NCBI RefSeq assembly: GCF_003611685.1
Contig: NZ_RAWC01000041.1
Coordinates: 1-53,140, forward strand
Source: Corallococcus sp. CA049B
GTDB taxonomy: Bacteria; Myxococcota; Myxococcia; Myxococcales; Myxococcaceae
Direction of reading: 5' to 3'
Length of the DNA stretch: 53,140 bases
Shown one piece after another: positions 28,570-39,355 of the stretch. The translations under genes and the position numbers were made by a program. Under the pieces are notes generated by a model, which was not told the DNA's origin, ran no database searches, and saw only the letters and a list, made by a program, of their open reading frames with translations. Position 1 is the stretch's first letter. Each line of letters begins with the position of its first letter.

Positions 28570-29490
28570 ATGAAGACGTTCCTCGTGGTCAACCCGCGCA
28601 GCGCCAACGGGCAGACGGGGAAGCGATGGGTGGAGATCTCCGCGCAGGTGGGCAAGGTGCTCGGTGACTTCGGGTCCGGCTTCACCAGCGGCGGCATGGA
28701 TGCGGCGCGTCTTGCGCGGCAGGCCATTGACGACGGTTATGAGTGCATCGTCGCGGTGGGCGGCGACGGCACGCTCAACGAGGTCACCAACGGCTTCTTC
28801 CGCGACGGACAGGTCATCAACCCCCAGGCCACGCTGGGCCTGCTGCCCCGAGGCACGGGCGGCGACTTCCGCCGCACCTTCGGGTGGGACCTGGAGCTGA
28901 CGTCCGCGCTGGAGCGGCTGCGCACGGAGAAGACCGAGCCCTTCGACGTGGGGCGGCTGGAGTTCACCGGCAACGACGGCAAGCCGGCCACGCGCTTCTT
29001 CGCCAACATCGCCTCGTTCGGCGTGAGCGCGGTGGTGGCCCGCGAGGTGAACCAGGGCAGCAAGGCGCTGGGCGGCAACCTGAGCTTCATGTGGGGCACC
29101 GTGAAGGGCCTCATCAAGTACCAGGAGCAGCAGGTGCGCCTCACGGTGGACGGCGGCGAGCCGGAGGTGGTGAGCGTCACCGCGGTGGCCGTGGCCAACG
29201 GCCGCTACTTCGGCAGCGGCATGTTCGTGGCGCCGGAGGCGGTGACGCACGACGGCCTCTTCGACGTCACCATCTGGTCCAACTACGGCCTGTCCGACTT
29301 CGTCCTCAAGTCCAAGGGCGTCTACAACGGCGACCACGTCACCTGGAAGGGCACGCGCCGGCTGCGCTGCCGCACGATCCACGCGGAGCCGCTGACGGGC
29401 GACGTGTTCCTGGACGTGGACGGCGAGACGCCGGGTCGGCTGCCCTGCACCATGACGCTGTTGCCGGGCGCCATCCGCCTCAAGGTGTAG
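28570..29490 (+). CDS. Diacylglycerol-kinase-family lipid kinase (YegS/DagK catalytic domain)
   Basis: The sequence reads MKTFLVVNPRSANG...GYECIVAVGGDGTLNEVTNGF and carries the GGDG ATP-binding motif. Confidence 0.8.
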   Translation: MKTFLVVNPRSANGQTGKRWVEISAQVGKVLGDFGSGFTSGGMDAARLARQAIDDGYECIVAVGGDGTLNEVTNGFFRDGQVINPQATLGLLPRGTGGDFRRTFGWDLELTSALERLRTEKTEPFDVGRLEFTGNDGKPATRFFANIASFGVSAVVAREVNQGSKALGGNLSFMWGTVKGLIKYQEQQVRLTVDGGEPEVVSVTAVAVANGRYFGSGMFVAPEAVTHDGLFDVTIWSNYGLSDFVLKSKGVYNGDHVTWKGTRRLRCRTIHAEPLTGDVFLDVDGETPGRLPCTMTLLPGAIRLKV

Positions 29491-30373
29491 CGCCGGAGCG
29501 GGGAGGGCGCCGCGCGTCCTCCACGGGCACGCTGACGCCAGACGCGGCGGGCGTGGGGCGGTACCAGCTCGTCTGTCCAATCAGGTGCCGCGTGAAGCCG
29601 TCCTCCACCAGGGGCGAGGCCTCCGCGGCGCCCAGCACCAGGTAGCCGTCCGCGTGGAGCATCCGCCGCACGCGGGCGAGCACCGCGCGCCGGGTGGGCG
29701 CGTCCCAGTAGATCATCACGTTGCGCAGGAAGACGAGGTCCACGGGCGCTTCCCGCGGGACGTCGTCCATCAGGTTGAGCGGCCGGAACTCCACCGGCTT
29801 GCGCACCTGTTCGCTCAGCCGCCACCCGTCGCGCTCCTGGTGGAAGTAGCGCTGGCGCAGCTGGGGCGTCAGGCCCCGGTGGATCTCCTTCGCGTCGTAG
29901 CGGGCCTCGCAGGCGCGGACGATGGCGCGGGTGGAGAAGTCCGTGGCGAGGATGCGCACCGTCCATCCGGTGATGAGCAGCCCGGCCTCGGCCAGCGTCA
30001 TCGCGACGCTGTAGGGCTCCTGACCGTAGGCGCACGCCGCGCACCAGATGCGCAGGGTCCTCGTGCGGACGCGCTTCGCCAGCAGGCCCGGCAGGACGGT
30101 GGTGCGCAGGGCCTCGAAGACGGGCGCGTCGCGGAAGAAGGCCGTCTCGTGGTTGGCCAGCGCCTCCGCCAGGCGCTGGTGCAGCGGACTGCCCTCCGGC
30201 TGCGAGCGCAACCGCGCGACCAGGGCGGAGAGGCCCGGCAGCCGCTCCTCGCGCATGAGGGGCGTGAGCCGAGTCTCCACCAGCGCGTACGTGTCGGGCT
30301 CCAGCACGAGCCCGGAGCGGCGCAGCACGCGCTGCCGCAAGTAGGCGAAGTCGTCGGGAAGCAGGGACATCAT
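29480..30373 (-). CDS. cheR: Chemotaxis protein methyltransferase CheR
   Basis: The sequence has HETAFFRD, then LRIWCAACAYGQEPYSVAM (the SAM-binding site) and VFLRNVMIYWD. The start MMSLLPDD overlaps the cheB stop (ATGA). Confidence 0.85.
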   Translation of the reverse strand: MMSLLPDDFAYLRQRVLRRSGLVLEPDTYALVETRLTPLMREERLPGLSALVARLRSQPEGSPLHQRLAEALANHETAFFRDAPVFEALRTTVLPGLLAKRVRTRTLRIWCAACAYGQEPYSVAMTLAEAGLLITGWTVRILATDFSTRAIVRACEARYDAKEIHRGLTPQLRQRYFHQERDGWRLSEQVRKPVEFRPLNLMDDVPREAPVDLVFLRNVMIYWDAPTRRAVLARVRRMLHADGYLVLGAAEASPLVEDGFTRHLIGQTSWYRPTPAASGVSVPVEDARRPPRSGATP

Positions 30374-31437
30374 CCAGTCCTCCGTCCGCGCGCATCCACG
30401 CGCCGCGCCAGCTCCAACGCCAGCGCCTCCAGGGGCACCACGGCATCCGCGAGCCCCGCCTGCTCCACCGCGCCCGGCATGCTGCCGACGACGCAGCTGG
30501 CCTGGTCCTGCACCACCACCTGTCCGCCTGCCTCGCTCACCCGCCGGCAGCCGCGCAGCCCGTCCTGGCCCATGCCGGTGAGCACCACCGCCAGCACCCC
30601 CGCGCCGTACACCTCCGCCGCGGAGCGGAAGAGCAGGTCCACCGCCGGACGGCACGCGTTCTCCGCGGGCCCCTGGTGCGTGAGCAGCCGCACGCCCATC
30701 GCATCCCGGCGCACGGCCAGGTGGAAGTCGCCGGGAGCGACCCACACCTCGCCCGCCTGCACGGAGGCGCCCGTCAGCGCCTCGCGCACGGTGAGCGGCG
30801 TCACGCCCTGCAACCGCTCCGCGAGCAGCCGGGTGAAGAGGGGCGGCATGTGCTGCACGATGAACACCGGCACCGGCAGGTCCGCGGGCAGCCCGGACAC
30901 CAGGCGCGCCAGCGCGCCCGGGCCCCCGGTGGACGCGCCGATGACGATGGCCTCCACCCGCGCGGGCGACCTCGGCCGGGCCAGGGGCTCGCGTGGCACC
31001 GGGGCCAGCGACGGCGGAGCGGACGGCGCGCGCACGTTCAGCGCCTTGAGCTTGCGCACCAGCTCGTCCCGCACGGCCTCCACGGTGATGTTCATCCCGC
31101 CCGCGGACGTGGGCTTCGTCACGTAGTCGCGGGCCCCCAGCGCGAGCGCCTCCAGGGTCAGCACGCCCGCGCGTTCGGTGAGCGCGCTGAACATCACCAC
31201 GGGCAATTCCGGGGCCCGCTGGCGCAGGAGCTTCAGCGTCTCCAGCCCGTCCAGCTCCGGCATCTCCAGGTCCAACAGCACCACGTCCGGCTGGAACTGC
31301 TCCACCTTCGCCAGGGCGATGCGGCCATTGGCCGCGGTGGCGACGACCTCCAGGCCCGGGGCCGCGCCCAGGAGCAGCGACACCTGGCGCCGCACCACGG
31401 CCGCGTCGTCCACCACCAGGACCCGGATGGCGTTCAT
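30370..31437 (-). CDS. cheB: Chemotaxis response regulator protein-glutamate methylesterase CheB
   Basis: The receiver domain (MNAIRVLVVDDAAVVRR...DVVLLDLEMPELDG) is followed by the methylesterase domain (IVIGASTGGPGAL...FIVQHMP...GMGQDG). Confidence 0.85.
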   Translation of the reverse strand: MNAIRVLVVDDAAVVRRQVSLLLGAAPGLEVVATAANGRIALAKVEQFQPDVVLLDLEMPELDGLETLKLLRQRAPELPVVMFSALTERAGVLTLEALALGARDYVTKPTSAGGMNITVEAVRDELVRKLKALNVRAPSAPPSLAPVPREPLARPRSPARVEAIVIGASTGGPGALARLVSGLPADLPVPVFIVQHMPPLFTRLLAERLQGVTPLTVREALTGASVQAGEVWVAPGDFHLAVRRDAMGVRLLTHQGPAENACRPAVDLLFRSAAEVYGAGVLAVVLTGMGQDGLRGCRRVSEAGGQVVVQDQASCVVGSMPGAVEQAGLADAVVPLEALALELARRVDARGRRTG

Positions 31438-31448
31438 TCGCACCTGCT

Positions 31449-31784
31449 TCACCGCGCCGCGTGCGCGACCGGGCAGCGGCCCAGGGGGGCACCGGAGGCC
31501 CTCTCGCCGTACACCTCGTGGCGCGGCCGGCTCGCGAGGATGGCGCTGGCGCCCCAGTCCGTCACGCGGTGGAAGGCCTCGGACGCGATGAAGGCGTCGA
31601 AGCCCTCGCGGCTGTGCCACTCGGAGACGATGAGGTAGCGCCCCGGCGCTCCCACGCTCTTGAACAGCTCCGTGTGCGCGTGCGCCGGCAGCTTGCGCAT
31701 CGCCTCCAGCACGAGCGCGAACTTCCGCTCGAAGGCTTCCGCCTTGCCCTCACGCACTTCGTAGTTCATGCCGATGGTGACCAT
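31449..31784 (-). CDS. ABM-like (antibiotic biosynthesis monooxygenase fold) small protein embedded in the che operon
   Basis: The 111-aa product MVTIGMNYEVREGKAEAFERKF...LIVSEWHSREGFDAFIASEAF has the ferredoxin-like ABM pattern. Confidence 0.5.
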   Translation of the reverse strand: MVTIGMNYEVREGKAEAFERKFALVLEAMRKLPAHAHTELFKSVGAPGRYLIVSEWHSREGFDAFIASEAFHRVTDWGASAILASRPRHEVYGERASGAPLGRCPVAHAAR

Positions 31785-31806
31785 CCGTCACCTCCTTGTC
31801 CGTGTG

Positions 31807-33399
31807 TCATTCGAGCCAGACCCGGACACGCCGGGGGCCCTCGTCCAGGTGGAACAGCTCCGACGGCCGCAGCCCCGCCGCGACCGCCGCGATCCCCATG
31901 GCCGCCGCATCCAAGCCCCGCGCCGCCAGCTTGCGAGGCAGGTCCTCCGGGAGCAGGTCCTCCAGGTGCGCCGCCACGTCCGCGCGGAAGGTCAGCGCGA
32001 CGCGCGTGTGCCCTCGCTCCGTCACCAGGACCTTCAGGTAGCGCGCGGCGCCCTCCACGCGCGCCTCCGGTGGCGAAGGCGGAGGCGGCAGCGACGGGGC
32101 GCGGGCCTCGTCCAGGAGCGGCCCCCAGGCGATGGGCACGTCCAGCACGTCCAGGTGGCGCACCAGCCCGTGGAACGCGCGCAGGACGAACAGGAGCGAC
32201 GCGGGCCCCGCCGCGCGGAAGTTCCAGCGGTGTGGCCCCAGCGCCTCGGTGAGCCGCTCGCCCAGCCGCCAGCGTCGCGCATGGAAGGGACGGTCCAGGA
32301 GGAAGGGCTCCAGCAGCACGCGGCTGACGGCGGGCAGCGCCTCCGCCATGGGCTCCAGCAGCTCCGGGGCGAAGCCCAGCATCACCCACGCGGACAGGAG
32401 CTGATCCGGGCGCGGCGGCGTGCCCGGACCCTTGAGGAGTGCGAGCAACCGCCCCAGCCCCACGGCCAGCTCCGGCGGCAGCGGCTTCACACAGCCGAAG
32501 TCGAGCACGCCCAGCACGGGCTGTCCGTCCTGTCCCCGCGACACGCGGTAGTTGCCCGGGTGCGGATCCGCGTGGAGCGTTCCCCACGTGAAGCAGCCGT
32601 GGAGGAACAGCCGTACGAGTGTCGTGGACAGCGCGCGGCGGTCCGCTTCGCTCCAGCGCCAGCCCTCCGCGAGCGACGCGCCGTCCACCCAGGTCATCAC
32701 CAGCAGGTCTTCCCGAGTGAGCGAGTCCACCGGCACGGGGACGATGACGCCCGGCACGTCCGCCATGCGCGTGCCCGCGTCCCGCAGGGCCTGGGCCTCG
32801 TGGCGATAGTCCAGCTCGCCCTGGAGCATGCGGGCCAGCTCGTGGCGGTAGGCGGACAGGTCCAGCTTCCCGCGCCAGCCTCCCAGCGGCGCGGCCAGCC
32901 ACCCCAGCGCGCGCAGATCATCCCGCACGGCCTCCGCGATGCCCGGGTGCCGCAGCTTCACCGCCACGGCGCGCCCGTCATGCAGCACGCCCCGGTGCAC
33001 CTGGCCCAGCGACGCGGCGATGCCCACACCCTCCAGCGACTGGAACACCTCCCGCCACGGGCGGCCCAGCCGGCGGGACACCTCCGCCAGCGCGGCCTCC
33101 GGCGCGAGCGGGGAGGGCGCCTCCGCGAGCGAACCGAACCCCGGCGTGTCCGCGCCCAGCTCCGCGAGCGTGAGCACCTGGCCCACCTTCTGGGGCAGCC
33201 CGCGCATCCCCAACAGCCGCTCGGTCAGCTCCCGCTGTGCTCGCTCCGCGTCCTGGGGCCGGGACACCCGCCGCAGGCGCGTGGAGGCACGGGCCACCTG
33301 GCCCAGCGCCCACCACCGCTTCAATCCGGTTCGCACGTGCCGTGGCTCCCTGTGCCTGACGCCGCCCGAGCTACTTCGTCCGCGCCTGCGTGGAGGCAC
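31807..33399 (-). CDS. UbiB/ABC1 (ADCK)-family atypical protein kinase embedded in the che operon. The 5' end is ambiguous because it runs into a tandem duplication.
   Basis: Kinase-like motifs are present: SLGQVHRGVLHDGRAVAVKLRHPGI (the Lys-containing VAVK), the catalytic block HADPHPGNYRV, and DFG (LDFGCV). The listed start is a GTG inside duplicated sequence. Confidence 0.65.
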   Translation of the reverse strand: MPPRRRGRSSSGGVRHREPRHVRTGLKRWWALGQVARASTRLRRVSRPQDAERAQRELTERLLGMRGLPQKVGQVLTLAELGADTPGFGSLAEAPSPLAPEAALAEVSRRLGRPWREVFQSLEGVGIAASLGQVHRGVLHDGRAVAVKLRHPGIAEAVRDDLRALGWLAAPLGGWRGKLDLSAYRHELARMLQGELDYRHEAQALRDAGTRMADVPGVIVPVPVDSLTREDLLVMTWVDGASLAEGWRWSEADRRALSTTLVRLFLHGCFTWGTLHADPHPGNYRVSRGQDGQPVLGVLDFGCVKPLPPELAVGLGRLLALLKGPGTPPRPDQLLSAWVMLGFAPELLEPMAEALPAVSRVLLEPFLLDRPFHARRWRLGERLTEALGPHRWNFRAAGPASLLFVLRAFHGLVRHLDVLDVPIAWGPLLDEARAPSLPPPPSPPEARVEGAARYLKVLVTERGHTRVALTFRADVAAHLEDLLPEDLPRKLAARGLDAAAMGIAAVAAGLRPSELFHLDEGPRRVRVWLE

Positions 33400-33494
33400 G
33401 GGCCACCTGGCCCCGCGCCCACCACCGCTTCAATCCGGTCCGCACGTGCCGTGGCTCCCTGTGCCTGATGCCGTCCGCGCTACTTCGTCCGCGC
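33288..33494. repeat. Tandem direct duplication of two copies of about 100-105 bp, spanning the mcp 3' end and intergenic region and the 5' end of the UbiB-kinase ORF
   Basis: gcgtggaggcacgggccacctggccc.gcgcccaccaccgcttcaatccggt.cgcacgtgccgtggctccctgtgcctga.gccg...gctacttcgtccgcgcc occurs twice with about 93% identity. The second copy contains the true mcp stop codon. The first copy carries a relic of it. Confidence 0.8.
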
Positions 33495-35582
33495 CGGCTT
33501 GTCGGAGGTGTCCACCTGCACGACCAGCCGTTGCAGCGACTGCGCCATGTGGGCCAGCTCCACCGCGGAGCGCTGCGTGCTGCCCGCGCCCTCGGTGGTG
33601 CTGCGCGCGGCCTCCGCCACGGCGGCCATGTTCTCGGAGATTTGCTGGCTGCCCTTGGCGGCCTCGCCCACGTTGCGGAGGATCTCCCCCGCGGTGGCCG
33701 TCTGCTCCTCGACGGAGGAGGCGATGGACGTCTGCAGCTCGTCGATGCGGCTGATGGTGGCGCCGATCTCCAGGATGGCGTTGACCACCTCCTCGGTGTC
33801 GCCCTGGATGGTGCCGATCTTCTGGCCGATGTCCTCCGTGGCGCGGGCCGTCTCGCGCGCCAGCTCCTTCACCTCGTTGGCCACCACCGCGAAGCCCCGG
33901 CCCGCCTCACCGGCGCGCGCCGCCTCGATGGTCGCGTTGAGCGCCAGCAGGTTCGTCTGCTGCGCGATGGAGGTGATGACCTTGATGACCTTGCCGATCT
34001 CCTGGCTGCTCGTCCCCAGCTTGCCGACGACGTTGGACGTGGAGTCCGCGAGCTTCACCGCGGACGCGGCCACCTTGGCGGCGGTGCTCGCGTTGCGCGC
34101 CACCTCGCGGATGTTCGCGTTGACCTCCTCCATGCCGGACGCGACGCTCTGCACGTTGCGGCTGACCTGTTCGGCGCCAGCGGACACCTGCGTGGCCTGC
34201 GCCGCGGTCTCCTGTGCGTTGCTCACCAGCTGCTGGCTGACGCTGGACAGCTCCTGCGACGACGCGGCGAGCGTCTGCGAGTGCTGCGTCACCTCCTGGA
34301 AGATGCCGCGCAGGGTGGTGTCCAGCTCCTGCTCGCGCTGCTGCACGGCGAGCTTGTCCGTGATCAGCTCCCACGTCACCATGGGGCCCAGGTAGCGGCC
34401 CTGGCCGTCGTACACCGCCGTCACCAGCAGGTCCGCGGTCTCCGGGCCAATGGGGATGTTCGCGCGCACCGGCAGGTTCTTGTCGTTGGCCAGGATCTTC
34501 CGCTGGTACGCCACGTCCCGGTGGAAGACGTCGATGTGGGAGCCCAGCACCCGGTCCGCGGCGACGGGCAGGTGCTTCTCCACGCGCTGCAACAGCCGGC
34601 GCGAGGCGGGGTTCAGGTAGATGATCTTCAGGTCCAGGTCCGCCACCATCACGCAGGTAGGGGCGTTCTCCATCATGGCCCTGAGGCGCGCCAACTCCGT
34701 GTCCGTGCGCTGCTGATCCGTGACGTCCGTCCACGTCACCACGTAGCCGGTGAGCGCTCCGCCCCGGCCGGAGATGCCGTCGATGCGCGCCTTGATCAGC
34801 GTGGGGCCCACCGCGAAGTGGGCCTCGTGCGGCAGCGCGGAGGGCTCCAGCAGCCGCTCCTCCTCCAGCCGGAGCTGGTGCTCGAAGTGGGCGAGGAAGT
34901 CGCCGCCCGCGTCCCCCGCGCCGTCGCGGAGGCCGGACGCCTGGTGGATGCGCTCGATGGCCTCCGACGAGGACGCGTTCGAGAAGACGATGGCCAGGTC
35001 CGCGTCCAGGACGAACAGGTTGACGCTCGCCGCGTCCAGCACCGCCTCGCTCAGGGCGCCTTCGAGCGGCGTGGGCGCGCGGCGGCGCGAGGACCGGGCC
35101 GCGGGGGCGGACGCGGCGGCGACCCGGCGTCCCTCCGTCCGGGAGGCACGCGCCGGAGCACGCTTCACGGCGGCGGTCCGCGAGGCGGCCTTCGCCACGG
35201 GCCTGCTCACGCTGTCGCCCTGCGACGAGCCCACGGCCGCCAGCAGCTCGCGGGCGACGGGGCCCGGCACGTCCAGGTCATCCAGCACGGTGGCCAGGTG
35301 TTCGGCGACGCGCCCGAAGTGACGGGGCTTGAGTTCCATGCGCGCGTGCACTTCGCGCATCGACGGGCCCTTGTAGACGCCCGGACCGCCCAGGTGCTGG
35401 GTGAGGAACGCGACCATCTGGCGCTGTAGCTGGAGCATGTCCGCGCGGCGGAAGTAGGGCTTGAGCAGCGCGTCCGTCATCACCCGCGCGTAGAGCTTCT
35501 GCACGGCGGCCGTCAGGGGGGCCTTGCCGCCCAGGCGCTGGAAGAGGGTGGTTTTCACGGCGGGCGCGGTCGGGCGGGCCAT
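33480..35582 (-). CDS. mcp: Soluble methyl-accepting chemotaxis protein with an N-terminal truncated hemoglobin (group I 2/2 Hb) domain and PAS domains
   Basis: The N-terminus [26 protein letters not shown]...[43 protein letters not shown] matches trHbN (mycobacterial ...[25 protein letters not shown]...). PAS-like segments follow. The C-terminus is an MCP signalling domain (...[31 protein letters not shown]...). No transmembrane segment is present. Confidence 0.85.
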
Positions 35583-36070
35583 CAGCGGGACTCCTGGGGA
35601 AGCAGGGGGAAGGAAGGGGAGGCGGAGGCGCTGGACGCGGGGGAGAGCCCGTCCACCACCGCGTCCGCGGACAACACGAGCAGCAGCCGGTCCGGCAGCG
35701 CATGGACACCCAACAGCAGCGAGCGCAGCGGCCCGCCCAGGTTGTCCGGCAGCGGCGCCAGGTCCGACTGCTCGAAGGGGAGGATGTCGCCAATGGCATC
35801 CACGCGAAGGCTCACCGCGCCCTCGTCGCCGCGCAGCACGACGTGGGGCGCGTCCGCGGGGGCGGTGCCCTCAGGGAGGTCCAGGCGGCGGCGCAGGTCG
35901 ATGGCGGGGACGATCTGCCCGCGCAGGTTGAGCAGCCCCGCCACCTCCGGAGGCGCGCCGGGGAGGCGCGTGAGCGGGGGCGGCAGCAGAATCTCCTGCA
36001 CGCGTTCGATGTCCAGGCCGAACAGGTGGTCACCCACCTGGAACGAGCACAGCTGGCGGGAGCCGCTCAT
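35582..36070 (-). CDS. cheW: Chemotaxis coupling protein CheW
   Basis: The 162-aa product [28 protein letters not shown]... is a CheW-like domain. Its start overlaps the cheA stop (ATGA), and its stop overlaps the mcp start. Confidence 0.8.
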
Positions 36071-38205
36071 GGCGCACCGCCTGTCAGCAGCTCCGGGTGC
36101 ACGGCGCGCACGGTGCCCTCCACGTCCAGGAACTCGGTGGCCCGGGCCTGCACCACCATGGAGCCCAGCACGCCCGGGCGGCGCGTCTCCCGCTGGAGCG
36201 CGAGCTCCACCTCCGCGACGTCGAGGATGGCGTCCACCACCAGCCCCACGCGCGTGTCCGCGTGCTGGGTGACGACGACGGACAGCGACTCGCCCAGGGC
36301 GACCTGAAGGTGTTGCGTGATCCGCTCCGTCGCGCCGGGCCTCGCCTCCAGCACGGACGCCACGCGCACCAGCGGCAGCAGCTGCCCGTGGTAGCGCGCC
36401 ATCTCCATGCCGCCGCTCAGCCGCTCCACGTCCGACGCGGGCAGCTCCTCCAGCCGGGCCACGCGCGACAGGGGAATGGCCACGCGGCCCTCCGCGCCAT
36501 TGCGGCACAGCAGCACGCGCTCGCGCGGCTCCTCCGGGGCCGGTGTTTCCGGAGCGGCCTCCGGAATGACGACCTGGGCCTGCGCCTCGGTGACGGTGCC
36601 CAGGCGGCGGCCCAGGCCCATGGCGTCCAGGATGAGCGCCACGCGCCCGTCGCCCAGCACCGTCGCCCCCGCGTAGCAGGCCAGCCCCTTCAGGTGCTTC
36701 CAGAGCGGCTTGACGACGATCTCCTCCGTGTCGTGGATGGCGTCCACCCACAGCCCGAAGGTGCGCTCACCGGCCTGGAGCACGACGACGGTGGCGCCCT
36801 CGTCCAGGTCCGGCAGCGCCGGCCCCACGCCCAGCTCGGCGGCGAGCACCACCAGCGGGAGCAGCTCTCCGCGCAGCCGCAGGACGCACGCTCCTTGGAT
36901 GCGGGTGATGTCCTTGCGGGCCTGGGCCGGCTCCAGGAACACCACCTCCCGCAGGGAGGCCTGCGGCAGCGCGTAGCGGTCCCCCCGGCAGGTGACGAGC
37001 AGCGCCGGGATGATGGCCAGCGTGAGGGGAATCTTCAGGGTGAACGTCGTGCCCTGGCCGGGCCGGCTGTGCACCTCCACGGTGCCGCCGATGCGCTCCA
37101 CCTGCGAGCGCACCACGTCCATGCCCACGCCCCGGCCGGACAGCGACGTGACGCGCTCCGCGGTGCTGAAGCCCGGCATGAAGATGAGCATCCGCGCGTC
37201 CGCGTCCGGCATCCGCGCCGCCTGGTCGGCCGTGAGCAGGCCCCGCTGCACCGCGACCTGCCGCACCCGCTGCACGTCGATGCCCGCGCCGTCGTCGGAC
37301 ATGCCCAGGTGCACGAGCCCGCCTTCATGCGACGCGCTCAGCGTCAGGCACCCCACGGGCGGCTTGCCCGCGGCGCGGCGCTGCTCGGGCGTCTCCACGC
37401 CGTGGTCCACGGCGTTGCGCAGGAGGTGGGTGAGCGGATCATGCAGCGCCTCCACCAGCGTCTTGTCCAGCTCCGTGTCCGCGCCCTGCAGCTGCAACCG
37501 CACCTGCTTGCCGCACCCGTGCGCCAGCTCGCGCACCAGCCGGGGAAAGCGGTTCCACACCTGGCCCACCGGCTGGAGCCGCGTCTTCATCACCACCTGC
37601 TGCACCTGCGTGGTGACGACATCCAGCCGCTGCGACGCGGTGAGCAGGTCCGCGCCCGGCGTGGACGAGGCCCCGCACTGGAGGATGCGGTTGCGCGCCA
37701 GCACCAGCTCGCCCATCAGGTTCATCAACCGGTCCAGCAGCGCCACGTCCACGCGCAGCTTGGAGTCCACCCCGGTCGCGGCACCGCGCCAGGGCAGGGC
37801 GCCCGGAGGCGTCAGGGGCTCGGACACCTCCTGCGGCGCGGAGCCCGCCGCCGCGCCCGCCATGCGAGCAAGCAGCGCGGAGTGGTCCACCGCGGGCTCC
37901 AGCCCCGTCACCTCGATGTGCTCCAGCGTCCCTCGCGCCGCGTCCGCCAGCGCCAGCAGCGTGGACACGCGCTCGCGGTCCAGCACCAGCCGCCGGTCGC
38001 GCGCCAGGCAGAGCATCTCCTCGGCGGCGTGCATCAGCGCCTCCAGGCGGCTGAAGCCCAGGAAGCCGCAGGTGCCCTTCACGGTGTGCAGGGCCCGGAA
38101 TAGCTGCGCCATCAATGGCTGAGCGCCCGGCTGTGCCTCCAGCTCCAGCACCGTCGCCTCGATGCTCTGCACGTGCTCGCGGGACTCGAGGAGGAACTCC
38201 CGCAT
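36067..38205 (-). CDS. cheA: Chemotaxis histidine kinase CheA with two C-terminal CheW-like domains
   Basis: The P1 Hpt domain (MREFLLESREHVQSIE...LFRALHTVKGTCGFLG) is followed by the dimerization and HATPase domains (...GRGVGMDVVRSQVERIGGTVEV). Two CheW-like segments follow. The likely start is the internal ATG at 38205. Confidence 0.85.
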   Translation of the reverse strand: MREFLLESREHVQSIEATVLELEAQPGAQPLMAQLFRALHTVKGTCGFLGFSRLEALMHAAEEMLCLARDRRLVLDRERVSTLLALADAARGTLEHIEVTGLEPAVDHSALLARMAGAAAGSAPQEVSEPLTPPGALPWRGAATGVDSKLRVDVALLDRLMNLMGELVLARNRILQCGASSTPGADLLTASQRLDVVTTQVQQVVMKTRLQPVGQVWNRFPRLVRELAHGCGKQVRLQLQGADTELDKTLVEALHDPLTHLLRNAVDHGVETPEQRRAAGKPPVGCLTLSASHEGGLVHLGMSDDGAGIDVQRVRQVAVQRGLLTADQAARMPDADARMLIFMPGFSTAERVTSLSGRGVGMDVVRSQVERIGGTVEVHSRPGQGTTFTLKIPLTLAIIPALLVTCRGDRYALPQASLREVVFLEPAQARKDITRIQGACVLRLRGELLPLVVLAAELGVGPALPDLDEGATVVVLQAGERTFGLWVDAIHDTEEIVVKPLWKHLKGLACYAGATVLGDGRVALILDAMGLGRRLGTVTEAQAQVVIPEAAPETPAPEEPRERVLLCRNGAEGRVAIPLSRVARLEELPASDVERLSGGMEMARYHGQLLPLVRVASVLEARPGATERITQHLQVALGESLSVVVTQHADTRVGLVVDAILDVAEVELALQRETRRPGVLGSMVVQARATEFLDVEGTVRAVHPELLTGGAP

Positions 38206-38410
38206 CACGTCGTCCCAGCCCGGAGTGTCACTCACGGACAGGACGCCCTTGGACAAGAGTCCAGACAGACTGTATGTGTTTGATGAGACGGATTTGACTG
38301 GCGCTGCCCATGGGCAACGGCCCCCCCGACCCACAAGACTCCGGAGTCGAAATCCCAGCATCCTCCAAAGTCAACGCCGTGAAAGCTGTCCCGGAGGGCA
38401 GGCGCCCTGC

Positions 38411-39334
38411 TCAGAAGAACAGGCGGAGCAAATCGTAGCGAGTCTCCGCGCCCAGCTTCCGGAGCAGGTTGGTCTGGTGGAATTTCACAGTGCGCTCGGT
38501 AATTCCTAGCACTGTTGAAATGTCGGTCGGCGAGCGGCCGAGCGCGAGATATCGCAACACATCGCCTTCCCGCTCGGACAGCCGCGCGGCGTGCGCCATG
38601 CGCCGCACCTTCGCCTCGAAGAGGCCGCTGAGGGTCTCATCCCCGATGGTGTGAACGCTGACACGCGCGGTGCCGGCGCCCGTGGGCGTGGCGGTGACGA
38701 CCTCATAGCCCTCGGCGTGCTCGGCGGCCTGCCGCACGATGGTGTGTGGCCACGAGGCAGGCGCAGCCACCGTCAACGGACAGTCCAGGCAGGGGGCGTC
38801 GCGGTGCGCGAAGGCGCCGAAGCACGGCTGGCCCACCATCTCCTCCTGCCGCGCCTCTCCGGACGTCCACACCGCCTTGAGCGTCCCGAACGACGACAGC
38901 TCGGTGGAGATTTCGTAGCTCAGGTCCCGGTGGGGGCCCTGGGCCGGGGCCGGCTCCGGGACGACGGTGCGCTCGGGGACGGAGAGGGGCGCAGAGGCGC
39001 GCGTGATGATGGCCACCAGCCGCAGGGGAGGGCGGCCCACCGCGGCCACGTCCAGCTCCACCGACAGCCGCTCGCCGTCGCGCGTGAGCACCTCCGTCTC
39101 CAGCCGCGTCTCCGCGCTGGTGAAGATGGCCCGCAGCGCCTGGCCCACCTCGCGTCCGTGCTCGCGTGGCGTGCAGACATCCGTCCAGCGGCGCCCCAAC
39201 AACTCCTCACGGGGCCGGCCCAGCAGCGACGTGAACGCGCCGTTCGCCAGCTCGATGCGGCCTCGCCGGTCCATCACGACGATGGGGCGTGTGTCCCGCT
39301 CCGCGAGCAGCGACGCGGTCAACGACCAGTCCAT
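38411..39334 (-). CDS. PAS-domain plus LuxR/GerE-family HTH transcriptional regulator upstream of the che operon
   Basis: The N-terminal PAS (IVVMDRRGRIELANGAFTSLLGRPREELLGRRW) is followed by a C-terminal LuxR HTH (EREGDVLRYLALGRSPTDISTVLGITERTVKFHQTNLLRKLG). Confidence 0.7.
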   Translation of the reverse strand: MDWSLTASLLAERDTRPIVVMDRRGRIELANGAFTSLLGRPREELLGRRWTDVCTPREHGREVGQALRAIFTSAETRLETEVLTRDGERLSVELDVAAVGRPPLRLVAIITRASAPLSVPERTVVPEPAPAQGPHRDLSYEISTELSSFGTLKAVWTSGEARQEEMVGQPCFGAFAHRDAPCLDCPLTVAAPASWPHTIVRQAAEHAEGYEVVTATPTGAGTARVSVHTIGDETLSGLFEAKVRRMAHAARLSEREGDVLRYLALGRSPTDISTVLGITERTVKFHQTNLLRKLGAETRYDLLRLFF

Positions 39335-39355
39335 GAGGCCCCCCGGCCGTTGCAA

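Follow-up and report, generated by a model that had tools for sequence, protein, structure and literature searches.

A soluble Corallococcus chemoreceptor predicted to join a group I truncated hemoglobin to an Aer2-type heme-PAS domain

The window analysed here covers the full length (53,140 bp) of a contig from Corallococcus sp. CA049B and carries a chemoreceptor gene at exactly 33480..35582. Like every other feature of the window described below, this open reading frame lies on the reverse (-) strand; it encodes a protein of 700 aa (WP_120618563.1), and its ATG start codon, which overlaps the stop codon of cheW (TGATG), is preceded by AGGAG 10 nt upstream. The gene was defined by its open reading frame together with its Pfam and NCBIfam domains and is an ortholog of Cc_4972 (WP_014397685.1). 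Read from the N to the C terminus, the protein comprises a domain assigned to the group I truncated hemoglobins (trHbs), a linker of ~50 aa that is predicted to be disordered, two PAS units (PAS1 and PAS2) and the kinase-control module of a methyl-accepting chemotaxis protein (MCP). In Pfam, residues 12-110 matched Bac_globin (PF01152; E=1.7e-17, with a score of 64 bits where the cutoff is 21), residues 298-341 PAS and PAS_8, and residues 497-658 MCPsignal (E=1.2e-32); these matches, like those to solved structures given below, are well beyond chance. Within Corallococcus, the mean pairwise identity is 96% for the kinase-control module, 92% for PAS2, 84% for the globin, 69% for PAS1 and 59% for the linker.

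A preliminary description of the locus had placed the N-terminal domain among the group I 2/2 trHbs and not among the sensor globins of the HemAT type, and Pfam, PDB and Foldseek comparisons agree on this point. The closest solved structures to the domain (aa 10-124, 35211..35555) are all group I trHbs, namely those of Tetrahymena (3AQ5, E=3.6e-19), Chlamydomonas (THB1) and Mycobacterium tuberculosis (HbN). Its top 18 PDB matches belong without exception to group I (E from 4e-19 to 3e-13; group II matches are much weaker, at 1e-9 to 1e-5), and the identity to solved group I trHbs is 28-36%. PF01152 was the sole globin family matched, with no match to Protoglobin (PF11563) or Globin in the receptor at E<=1. 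An AlphaFold2 model, which spans aa 1-422 as a monomer, gives the globin a pLDDT (predicted local distance difference test) of 80-93, and Foldseek aligns the modelled domain to trHbN (group I) structures with TM scores of 0.84-0.91 and a root-mean-square deviation (rmsd) of 1.3-1.7 Å, the TM score against M. tuberculosis HbN being 0.84-0.86. The predicted fold is 2-on-2, and all sequence tests identify the domain as a bona fide group I trHb.

The heme pocket was assigned from an alignment in which M. tuberculosis HbN and the Tetrahymena trHb were set beside 49 fused globins, contributed by 48 members of the family. The proximal His F8 corresponds to His79 (codon 35346-35348), which is kept in 49/49 domains and lies within the motif (aa 72-82) that the preliminary description had quoted as the proximal His region. 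Tyr B10 (Tyr31) and Phe CD1 (Phe44) are each present in 47/47 domains, as is the Gly-Gly hinge of the AB region (G18-G19), and the EF hinge (G65-G66) is kept in 46/49, or 46/47 among the sequences covering the column. Position E7 is Leu52, as in HbN, with Leu in 39/47 domains; G8 is Val92, with Val in 41/49 and Trp in none; and in the pair H88-F89, F89 is Phe G5, kept in 47/49. Within Corallococcus, the pocket residues are invariant. Compared with trHbN in the way that the preliminary description had proposed, the heme pocket is thus predicted to be intact, with His79 as the proximal ligand, and the invariant pocket together with the 84% identity clearly points to purifying selection on the globin. 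A missing proximal His or altered pocket residues, which the preliminary description had named as grounds for refutation, are not seen.

The distal side of this pocket has changed within the genus. In HbN, Tyr B10 is partnered by a Gln at E11, where the receptor has Met56 (codon 35415-35417); Met occupies this position in 18/19 Corallococcus globin domains and Gln in 21/28 scorable fused domains from elsewhere, which marks the change from Gln to Met as specific to Corallococcus. Alongside it, Arg/Lys at E10 has become Gln in the genus, and E15, which is the Phe gate of HbN, is Leu in the receptor. With Met56 the HbN-like pair of Tyr B10 and Gln E11 is replaced, which may affect ligand affinity, and this Met might possibly coordinate the iron.

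Two PAS-like segments had also been described, and two PAS units do exist, at aa 177-295 and 296-415; what had been overlooked is that the second looks like a heme-PAS of the Aer2 type. Both units are members of a family of 120-residue repeats, which across the receptor family show a fixed spacing from an FH motif to a Trp. The PAS region matches crystal structures of the PAS-heme domain of Pseudomonas aeruginosa Aer2 (PaAer2; 3VOL, E=7.8e-15, and 4HI4) and of PAS2 of Vibrio cholerae Aer2 (VcAer2; 6CEQ), and the NCBIfam model for Vibrio Aer2 matches in part over aa 182-418 (E=2.4e-55). When the PAS2 model was compared with 3VOL, 6CEQ and 4HI4 using Foldseek, the TM scores were 0.81-0.82 at an rmsd of 1.7-2.0. 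The signature of Aer2 consists of a heme-coordinating Eη-His, an O2-stabilising Iβ-Trp and a cleft-occupying Hβ-Leu, which are the experimentally defined heme/O2 residues, and of a C-terminal DxT coupling motif (PMC10107281). In PAS2 (34338..34697), Eη-His354 (34521-34523) aligns with His234 of PaAer2 in the FH motif and is His in 166/168 PAS2-type units, Hβ-Leu385 (34428-34430) is Leu in 167/168 and Iβ-Trp404 (34371-34373) is Trp in 168/168. PDB matches, residue conservation and Foldseek together predict that PAS2 is an Aer2-type heme-PAS with all of the heme and O2-pocket residues of Aer2. Its DxT region reads W-E-L-I-T, in which Thr408 is the Thr that is kept in 165/168 PAS2-type units; in 167/168, Leu, Val or Ile stands where Aer2 has the Asp.

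PAS2 is followed by the kinase-control module (aa 416-700, 33483..34337), in agreement with the MCP signalling domain of the preliminary description. PAS2 continues by way of a helix predicted at aa 408-421 directly into this module, which is roughly collinear with models of Escherichia coli Tar and Trg and contains a single methylation-like site, EEQTAT, at aa 625. No HAMP domain was found in the receptor by Pfam even at E<=1. PAS2 ends at approximately aa 415 and the hairpin tip begins at aa 553, 137 residues past aa 416, which leaves no space for a di-HAMP.

The absence of transmembrane helices, which had been noted from the outset, is borne out by a hydropathy scan of the receptor, in which no such helix was found and the best 19-residue Kyte-Doolittle window scored only 1.67, and by TMHMM, which finds none in the ortholog Cc_4972 (PMC6194562). 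The best-scoring window, at the start of PAS1 (aa 181-199), was rejected as a transmembrane segment: it has Asp residues inside, and the model gives a PAS1 helix and β-strands there. By these sequence measures, the receptor is a predicted soluble chemoreceptor.

PAS1 (34698..35054) is an Aer2-related unit that is folded in the AlphaFold2 model and keeps Trp284 and the DxT motif (D286-V-T288); across the family, PAS1-type units keep the Iβ-Trp in 84/84 and the DxT Asp in 78/84 cases. Its Eη position, assigned from the family PAS alignment, is Glu234 (codon 34881-34883); each of the 20 Corallococcus sequences has Glu there, whereas 61 of the 64 PAS1-type units outside the genus carry His. The neighbouring His235 is unlikely to stand in for the lost ligand; it is Gln in 3/18 Corallococcus sequences. 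PAS1 has thus lost its heme-ligand His through a His-to-Glu change specific to the genus, where it is degenerate and also the least conserved of the folded domains. Because of this loss, we predict two hemes per receptor monomer in Corallococcus, and three are not expected.

The segment between globin and PAS1 (aa 125-176, 35055..35210) is rich in Ala, Arg, Ser and Pro and has a net charge of +11. In the AlphaFold2 model it is a coil without secondary structure (pLDDT 29-37), and the family alignment gives globin-PAS1 linkers of 31-68 aa with 28% identity and 62-88% disorder-prone residues. The net charge is +9 to +13 in all Corallococcus orthologs, compared with -4 to +1 in most other lineages, and is kept basic within the genus despite lengths of 34-57 aa and the 59% identity. 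The globin is therefore modelled as attached by a flexible, disordered, polybasic tether.

The globin is an optional part of this receptor family, in which 68 of the 116 members with PAS units have none. The globin-less receptors of Hyalangium rubrum and of a Gemmataceae metagenome-assembled genome (MAG) sit in a CheA-CheW-MCP-CheY-CheB-CheR context, and no stand-alone trHb gene, as would be expected of a split gene, was found near either of them. Because the linker is disordered and variable in length (31-68 aa) and because many homologs lack the globin, we consider the globin more likely to be an accessory than the sensor itself.

Our preferred explanation, which we hold to be rather probable, is that the receptor is an Aer2-like soluble PAS-heme gas sensor to which a tethered trHbN has been added as an optional second heme site. 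PAS2, which adjoins the kinase-control module and is more conserved than the globin, is the probable transducer. In such a receptor, O2 or another diatomic gas would bind to the heme of PAS2, and Trp404 (Iβ) and Leu385 (Hβ) would rearrange as their counterparts do in PaAer2, VcAer2 and the Aer2 of Vibrio vulnificus (VvAer2). The change would travel via the C-terminus of the PAS domain and the helix that follows to the kinase-control module, which would set the activity of CheA, with adaptation by CheB and CheR. The trHbN would bind heme and gas independently, as an accessory; it might then modulate PAS signalling by ligand-dependent contacts, a part that upstream PAS domains play in VcAer2 and VvAer2; alternatively, it might condition the local gas signal, for example through the chemistry of O2 and nitric oxide (NO).

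Several points weigh against this explanation. In all characterised Aer2 receptors a di-HAMP links PAS to the kinase module, and in the conserved core it follows the last PAS and precedes the kinase-control module (PMC10107281); the present receptor appears from its sequence to have no di-HAMP. Because this element is missing and PAS2 has Leu where the DxT motif has its Asp, the transduction route proposed here is extrapolated from that of Aer2. Contacts between globin and PAS in a dimer are outside the reach of the monomer model. Finally, the constraint on the globin, together with relatives that have no Aer2-type PAS, keeps direct sensing by the globin in contention.

Such direct sensing was the reading of the preliminary description, in which primary sensing falls to the trHb while the PAS domains only transmit the signal or dimerise, following the logic of HemAT on a 2/2 globin. 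Its description of a soluble chemoreceptor with a trHb stands, but the globin is more likely the second, accessory heme site, and we now regard the primary-sensor role as unlikely. The invariant pocket of a domain under constraint would fit it well, as would the loss of the heme ligand from PAS1 and the rare relatives in which a trHb and an MCP module occur together but an Aer2-type PAS is missing, namely P0218, P0266 (globin-MCP-PAS_3) and P0252 (MCP-globin). However, PAS2 retains every Aer2 heme and O2 residue and is conserved above the globin; a disordered linker of variable length in front of PAS1 is ill-suited to a rigid conformational relay, and many homologous receptors in the same type of operon do without a globin.

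About equally improbable, in our judgement, is a trHbN that serves as a tethered enzyme or buffer, such as an NO dioxygenase, which would shield the PAS2 heme from NO or from excess O2 and thereby keep the O2 signal of the receptor accurate. NO dioxygenation is the established function of M. tuberculosis HbN, and the receptor globin resembles this protein in its group I assignment, in Tyr B10 and Leu E7 and in its predicted fold; a flexible tether would also suit a role in local chemistry, and the pairing with an Aer2-type PAS is recurrent. The likeness to HbN is nevertheless incomplete, given the Met in place of Gln E11 in nearly all Corallococcus domains and the Leu in place of the Phe E15 gate. 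The operon, moreover, encodes no reductase partner, and a tethered globin in stoichiometric amount would be a poor scavenger without turnover. That the globin is a heme-free structural remnant, which acts only as an N-terminal cap or in oligomerisation in the manner of the non-heme globins that are known from signalling proteins such as RsbR (PMC8717448), would agree with its dispensability in many homologs but is very improbable, because the conservation of His F8 (49/49), of Tyr B10 and Phe CD1 (47/47 each) and of both Gly-Gly motifs, with pocket residues invariant in the genus, is unexpected for a domain without heme. To readings beyond these four we leave a similarly slight probability.

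The combination of the two heme modules extends beyond Corallococcus. An exhaustive HMMER search with the globin alone returned 3114 representatives at E<=1e-3; 20 long single-globin proteins among them were checked and included 13 MCPs, one CheA-like protein and three globin-PAS fragments, and in 11 of the 13 globin-MCP representatives the FH...W signature marks an Aer2-like PAS unit. The pairing of trHb and Aer2-type PAS, as judged by these signatures, is not random and recurs across phyla. Other arrangements were also seen: P0019 has two tandem trHb domains followed by four Aer2-like PAS units and an unrelated PAS, P0204 is a globin-HAMP-Aer2-like PAS-GAF-MCP protein, P0252 is an MCP that ends in a trHb at its C-terminus, and in P0238, a CheA-like protein, the trHb lies between the HATPase_c and CheW domains. 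Three shorter proteins of the Corallococcus type may be natural deletions or artefacts of gene calling: P0022 (572 aa) has no PAS2, P0026 (404 aa) begins at PAS2, and P0030 (496 aa) has no PAS2 and only the C-terminal part of the globin.

We advance tentatively, and with more doubt than confidence, the wider proposal that trHbN and Aer2-type PAS together form a distinct and widespread class of soluble dual-heme chemoreceptors, in which the globin works on the signal and which has been remodelled in Corallococcus. The class as proposed is seen in Myxococcota and in MAGs of Nitrospirales and Vicinamibacterales. The trHb could be a second sensor with another gas affinity or selectivity, or a local filter that processes NO or O2. 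The putative remodelling in Corallococcus would comprise the heme-less PAS1, the Met at E11, the polybasic tether of approximately +11 and, in the operon, two genes for ABC1 and ABM proteins in the slot of CheY. The physiological roles of bacterial trHbs are largely obscure, and a trHb that is wired into a chemoreceptor offers a direct behavioural or kinase read-out; if true, a role as second sensor or filter would give these proteins a defined function in signalling.

The receptor gene belongs to a chemosensory operon. Upstream of it lie cheA (36067..38361, with an alternative start at 38205; Pfam domains Hpt, dimerisation, HATPase_c and CheW-like) and cheW (35582..36070; 162 aa, Pfam CheW E=1.2e-29). 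Because cheA and cheW overlap by ATGA and cheW and the receptor gene by TGATG, the three genes appear to be translationally coupled, cheW to both of its neighbours. Directly upstream of cheA and in the same orientation, a gene at 38411-39355 encodes a regulator of 314 aa with a PAS domain and a helix-turn-helix of the LuxR/GerE type. The receptor gene is followed by a gene with a GTG start for an ABC1/UbiB-like atypical kinase of 530 aa (31807..33399; PF03109, E=2e-47, the UbiB match being partial and below the cutoff), a gene for a protein of 111 aa with the ABM fold (31449..31784; PF03992, E=3.8e-14), cheB (30370..31437), whose Pfam domains are a receiver and a methylesterase, and cheR (29480..30373, from Pfam), which overlaps the cheB stop by 4 nt.

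Pfam analysis of the operon genes found no CheY in Corallococcus. The genes for the ABC1/UbiB-like kinase and the ABM protein (31449-33399) fill the position between MCP and CheB that a single-domain CheY takes in homologous clusters, which are those of Hyalangium, the Gemmataceae MAG and a JGI metagenome contig (compared at 11769-12143 of L001 and 12056-12427 of L002). A fusion of a Ser/Thr protein kinase with a receiver flanks the homologous che cluster at 5310-7217 of L002 and, downstream of CheX, on the contig JGI 3300047160; its place beside the cluster in these two planctomycete-like contigs suggests a non-motility output of this class of systems. The best annotated matches of the ABM protein are heme-related (MhuD/HmoB, E ~1e-4; PRK09565, the NCBIfam 'heme-binding protein', a partial match at E=4e-11; HmuQ, E=1e-3). 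We rejected a canonical heme oxygenase of the IsdG/MhuD type: the match is weak (E ~1e-4), and Trp66 and His75 of MhuD align with Phe65 and Glu69. A role in heme handling beside a heme receptor is possible for the ABM protein but unsupported. Fusions of trHb with ABM are known in Streptomyces (Bonamore 2007, as cited in PMC7475203).

A fusion of globin, PAS and MCP, which the preliminary description had taken to be of an unusual type, is already known as an in-silico prediction. Sharma, Parales & Singer reported in 2018 the combination of Bac_globin, PAS and MCPsignal in a study centred on Cc_4972 of C. coralloides DSM 2259, where it lies in the seven-gene Cc-5 cluster that includes ABC1 and ABM and for which aerotaxis was proposed; six other genomes shared the combination (PMC6194562). 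Published complete genomes that have it include those of Planctomycetes, Nitrospirae and Alpha- and Gammaproteobacteria. The receptor described here is 95% identical to WP_014397685.1 (663/700, no gaps) and falls with it into a common 90% cluster. The gene order CheA-CheW-MCP(Bac_globin+PAS)-ABC1-ABM-CheB-CheR matches the published Cc-5 (WP_014397683-689) by Pfam of all seven proteins; the comparison at the sequence level covered the MCP, and the other six were matched by Pfam and order. The statement of 2018 that just a single myxobacterium possesses the cluster (PMC6194562) is outdated, because the receptor is found in at least 17 Corallococcus 90% clusters and a globin-less version in Hyalangium rubrum. 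A review of July 2026 cites the architecture of Cc_4972 only as an in-silico prediction (PMC13401364). What we add to the prediction of 2018 is a sharper and testable model, an Aer2-like heme-PAS transducer with a tethered trHbN, which is of interest chiefly in the fields of heme-based sensing and myxobacterial chemosensory systems.

Among known systems, Cc_4972 is the ortholog, with the same Pfam architecture and no transmembrane helix, and nothing of substance differs. Its published account (PMC6194562) assigns no trHb group, no pocket residues, no loss of the PAS1 ligand and no linker, and the term 'Aer2' has 0 occurrences in it. The receptor shares with HemAT and the globin-coupled sensors an N-terminal heme globin, an MCP module, a soluble nature and a presumed role in aerotaxis. 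The sensor globin of HemAT is of the 3/3 type (Pfam Protoglobin, PF11563; PMC6194562), whereas the globin here is a predicted 2/2 group I trHb (PF01152), and a disordered tether as well as two PAS domains lie between it and the signalling part. The group I trHbs (HbN, THB1 and those of Tetrahymena and Paramecium) have in common with it the 2/2 fold, the Gly-Gly motifs, Tyr B10, Phe CD1, His F8 and Val G8; it differs from them in its fusion to a receptor and in Met instead of Gln at E11 and Leu instead of Phe at E15. In a review of globins from 2020, the bacterial chimeric trHbs that are listed come from groups II and III only (PMC7475203).

FrzCD of Myxococcus xanthus, a cytoplasmic receptor whose basic tail binds the nucleoid (PMC5716589), is like the present receptor a myxobacterial soluble MCP with a strongly positive disordered segment on the N-terminal side of the signalling part. 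It has no heme domains, and its basic segment is an N-terminal tail, whereas that of the present receptor is an interdomain linker. By analogy, the tether could anchor the receptor array on the nucleoid, although binding to DNA is pure conjecture.

The closest known class of receptors is Aer2, which had been overlooked when the preliminary description set the unusual type of this receptor against HemAT alone. Literature searches that paired Aer2 with a truncated globin gave no match, and the N-terminal trHb is reported for no Aer2; the present receptor also differs in the missing di-HAMP after the last PAS, in the Leu at the DxT Asp of PAS2 and in a Corallococcus PAS1 without the heme-ligand His. 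It resembles Aer2 of P. aeruginosa, V. cholerae and V. vulnificus as a soluble MCP, in a PAS2 that is homologous to the Aer2 PAS (E ~1e-14, TM score ~0.82), in the conserved Eη-His, Hβ-Leu and Iβ-Trp of PAS2, in the variability of its N-terminal modules, in tandem PAS units such as those of VcAer2 and VvAer2 and in a kinase-control module that is roughly collinear with 36-heptad receptors. With no di-HAMP and with the DxT Asp lost, it is not a canonical member of this class, yet its sequence predicts that it works like Aer2.

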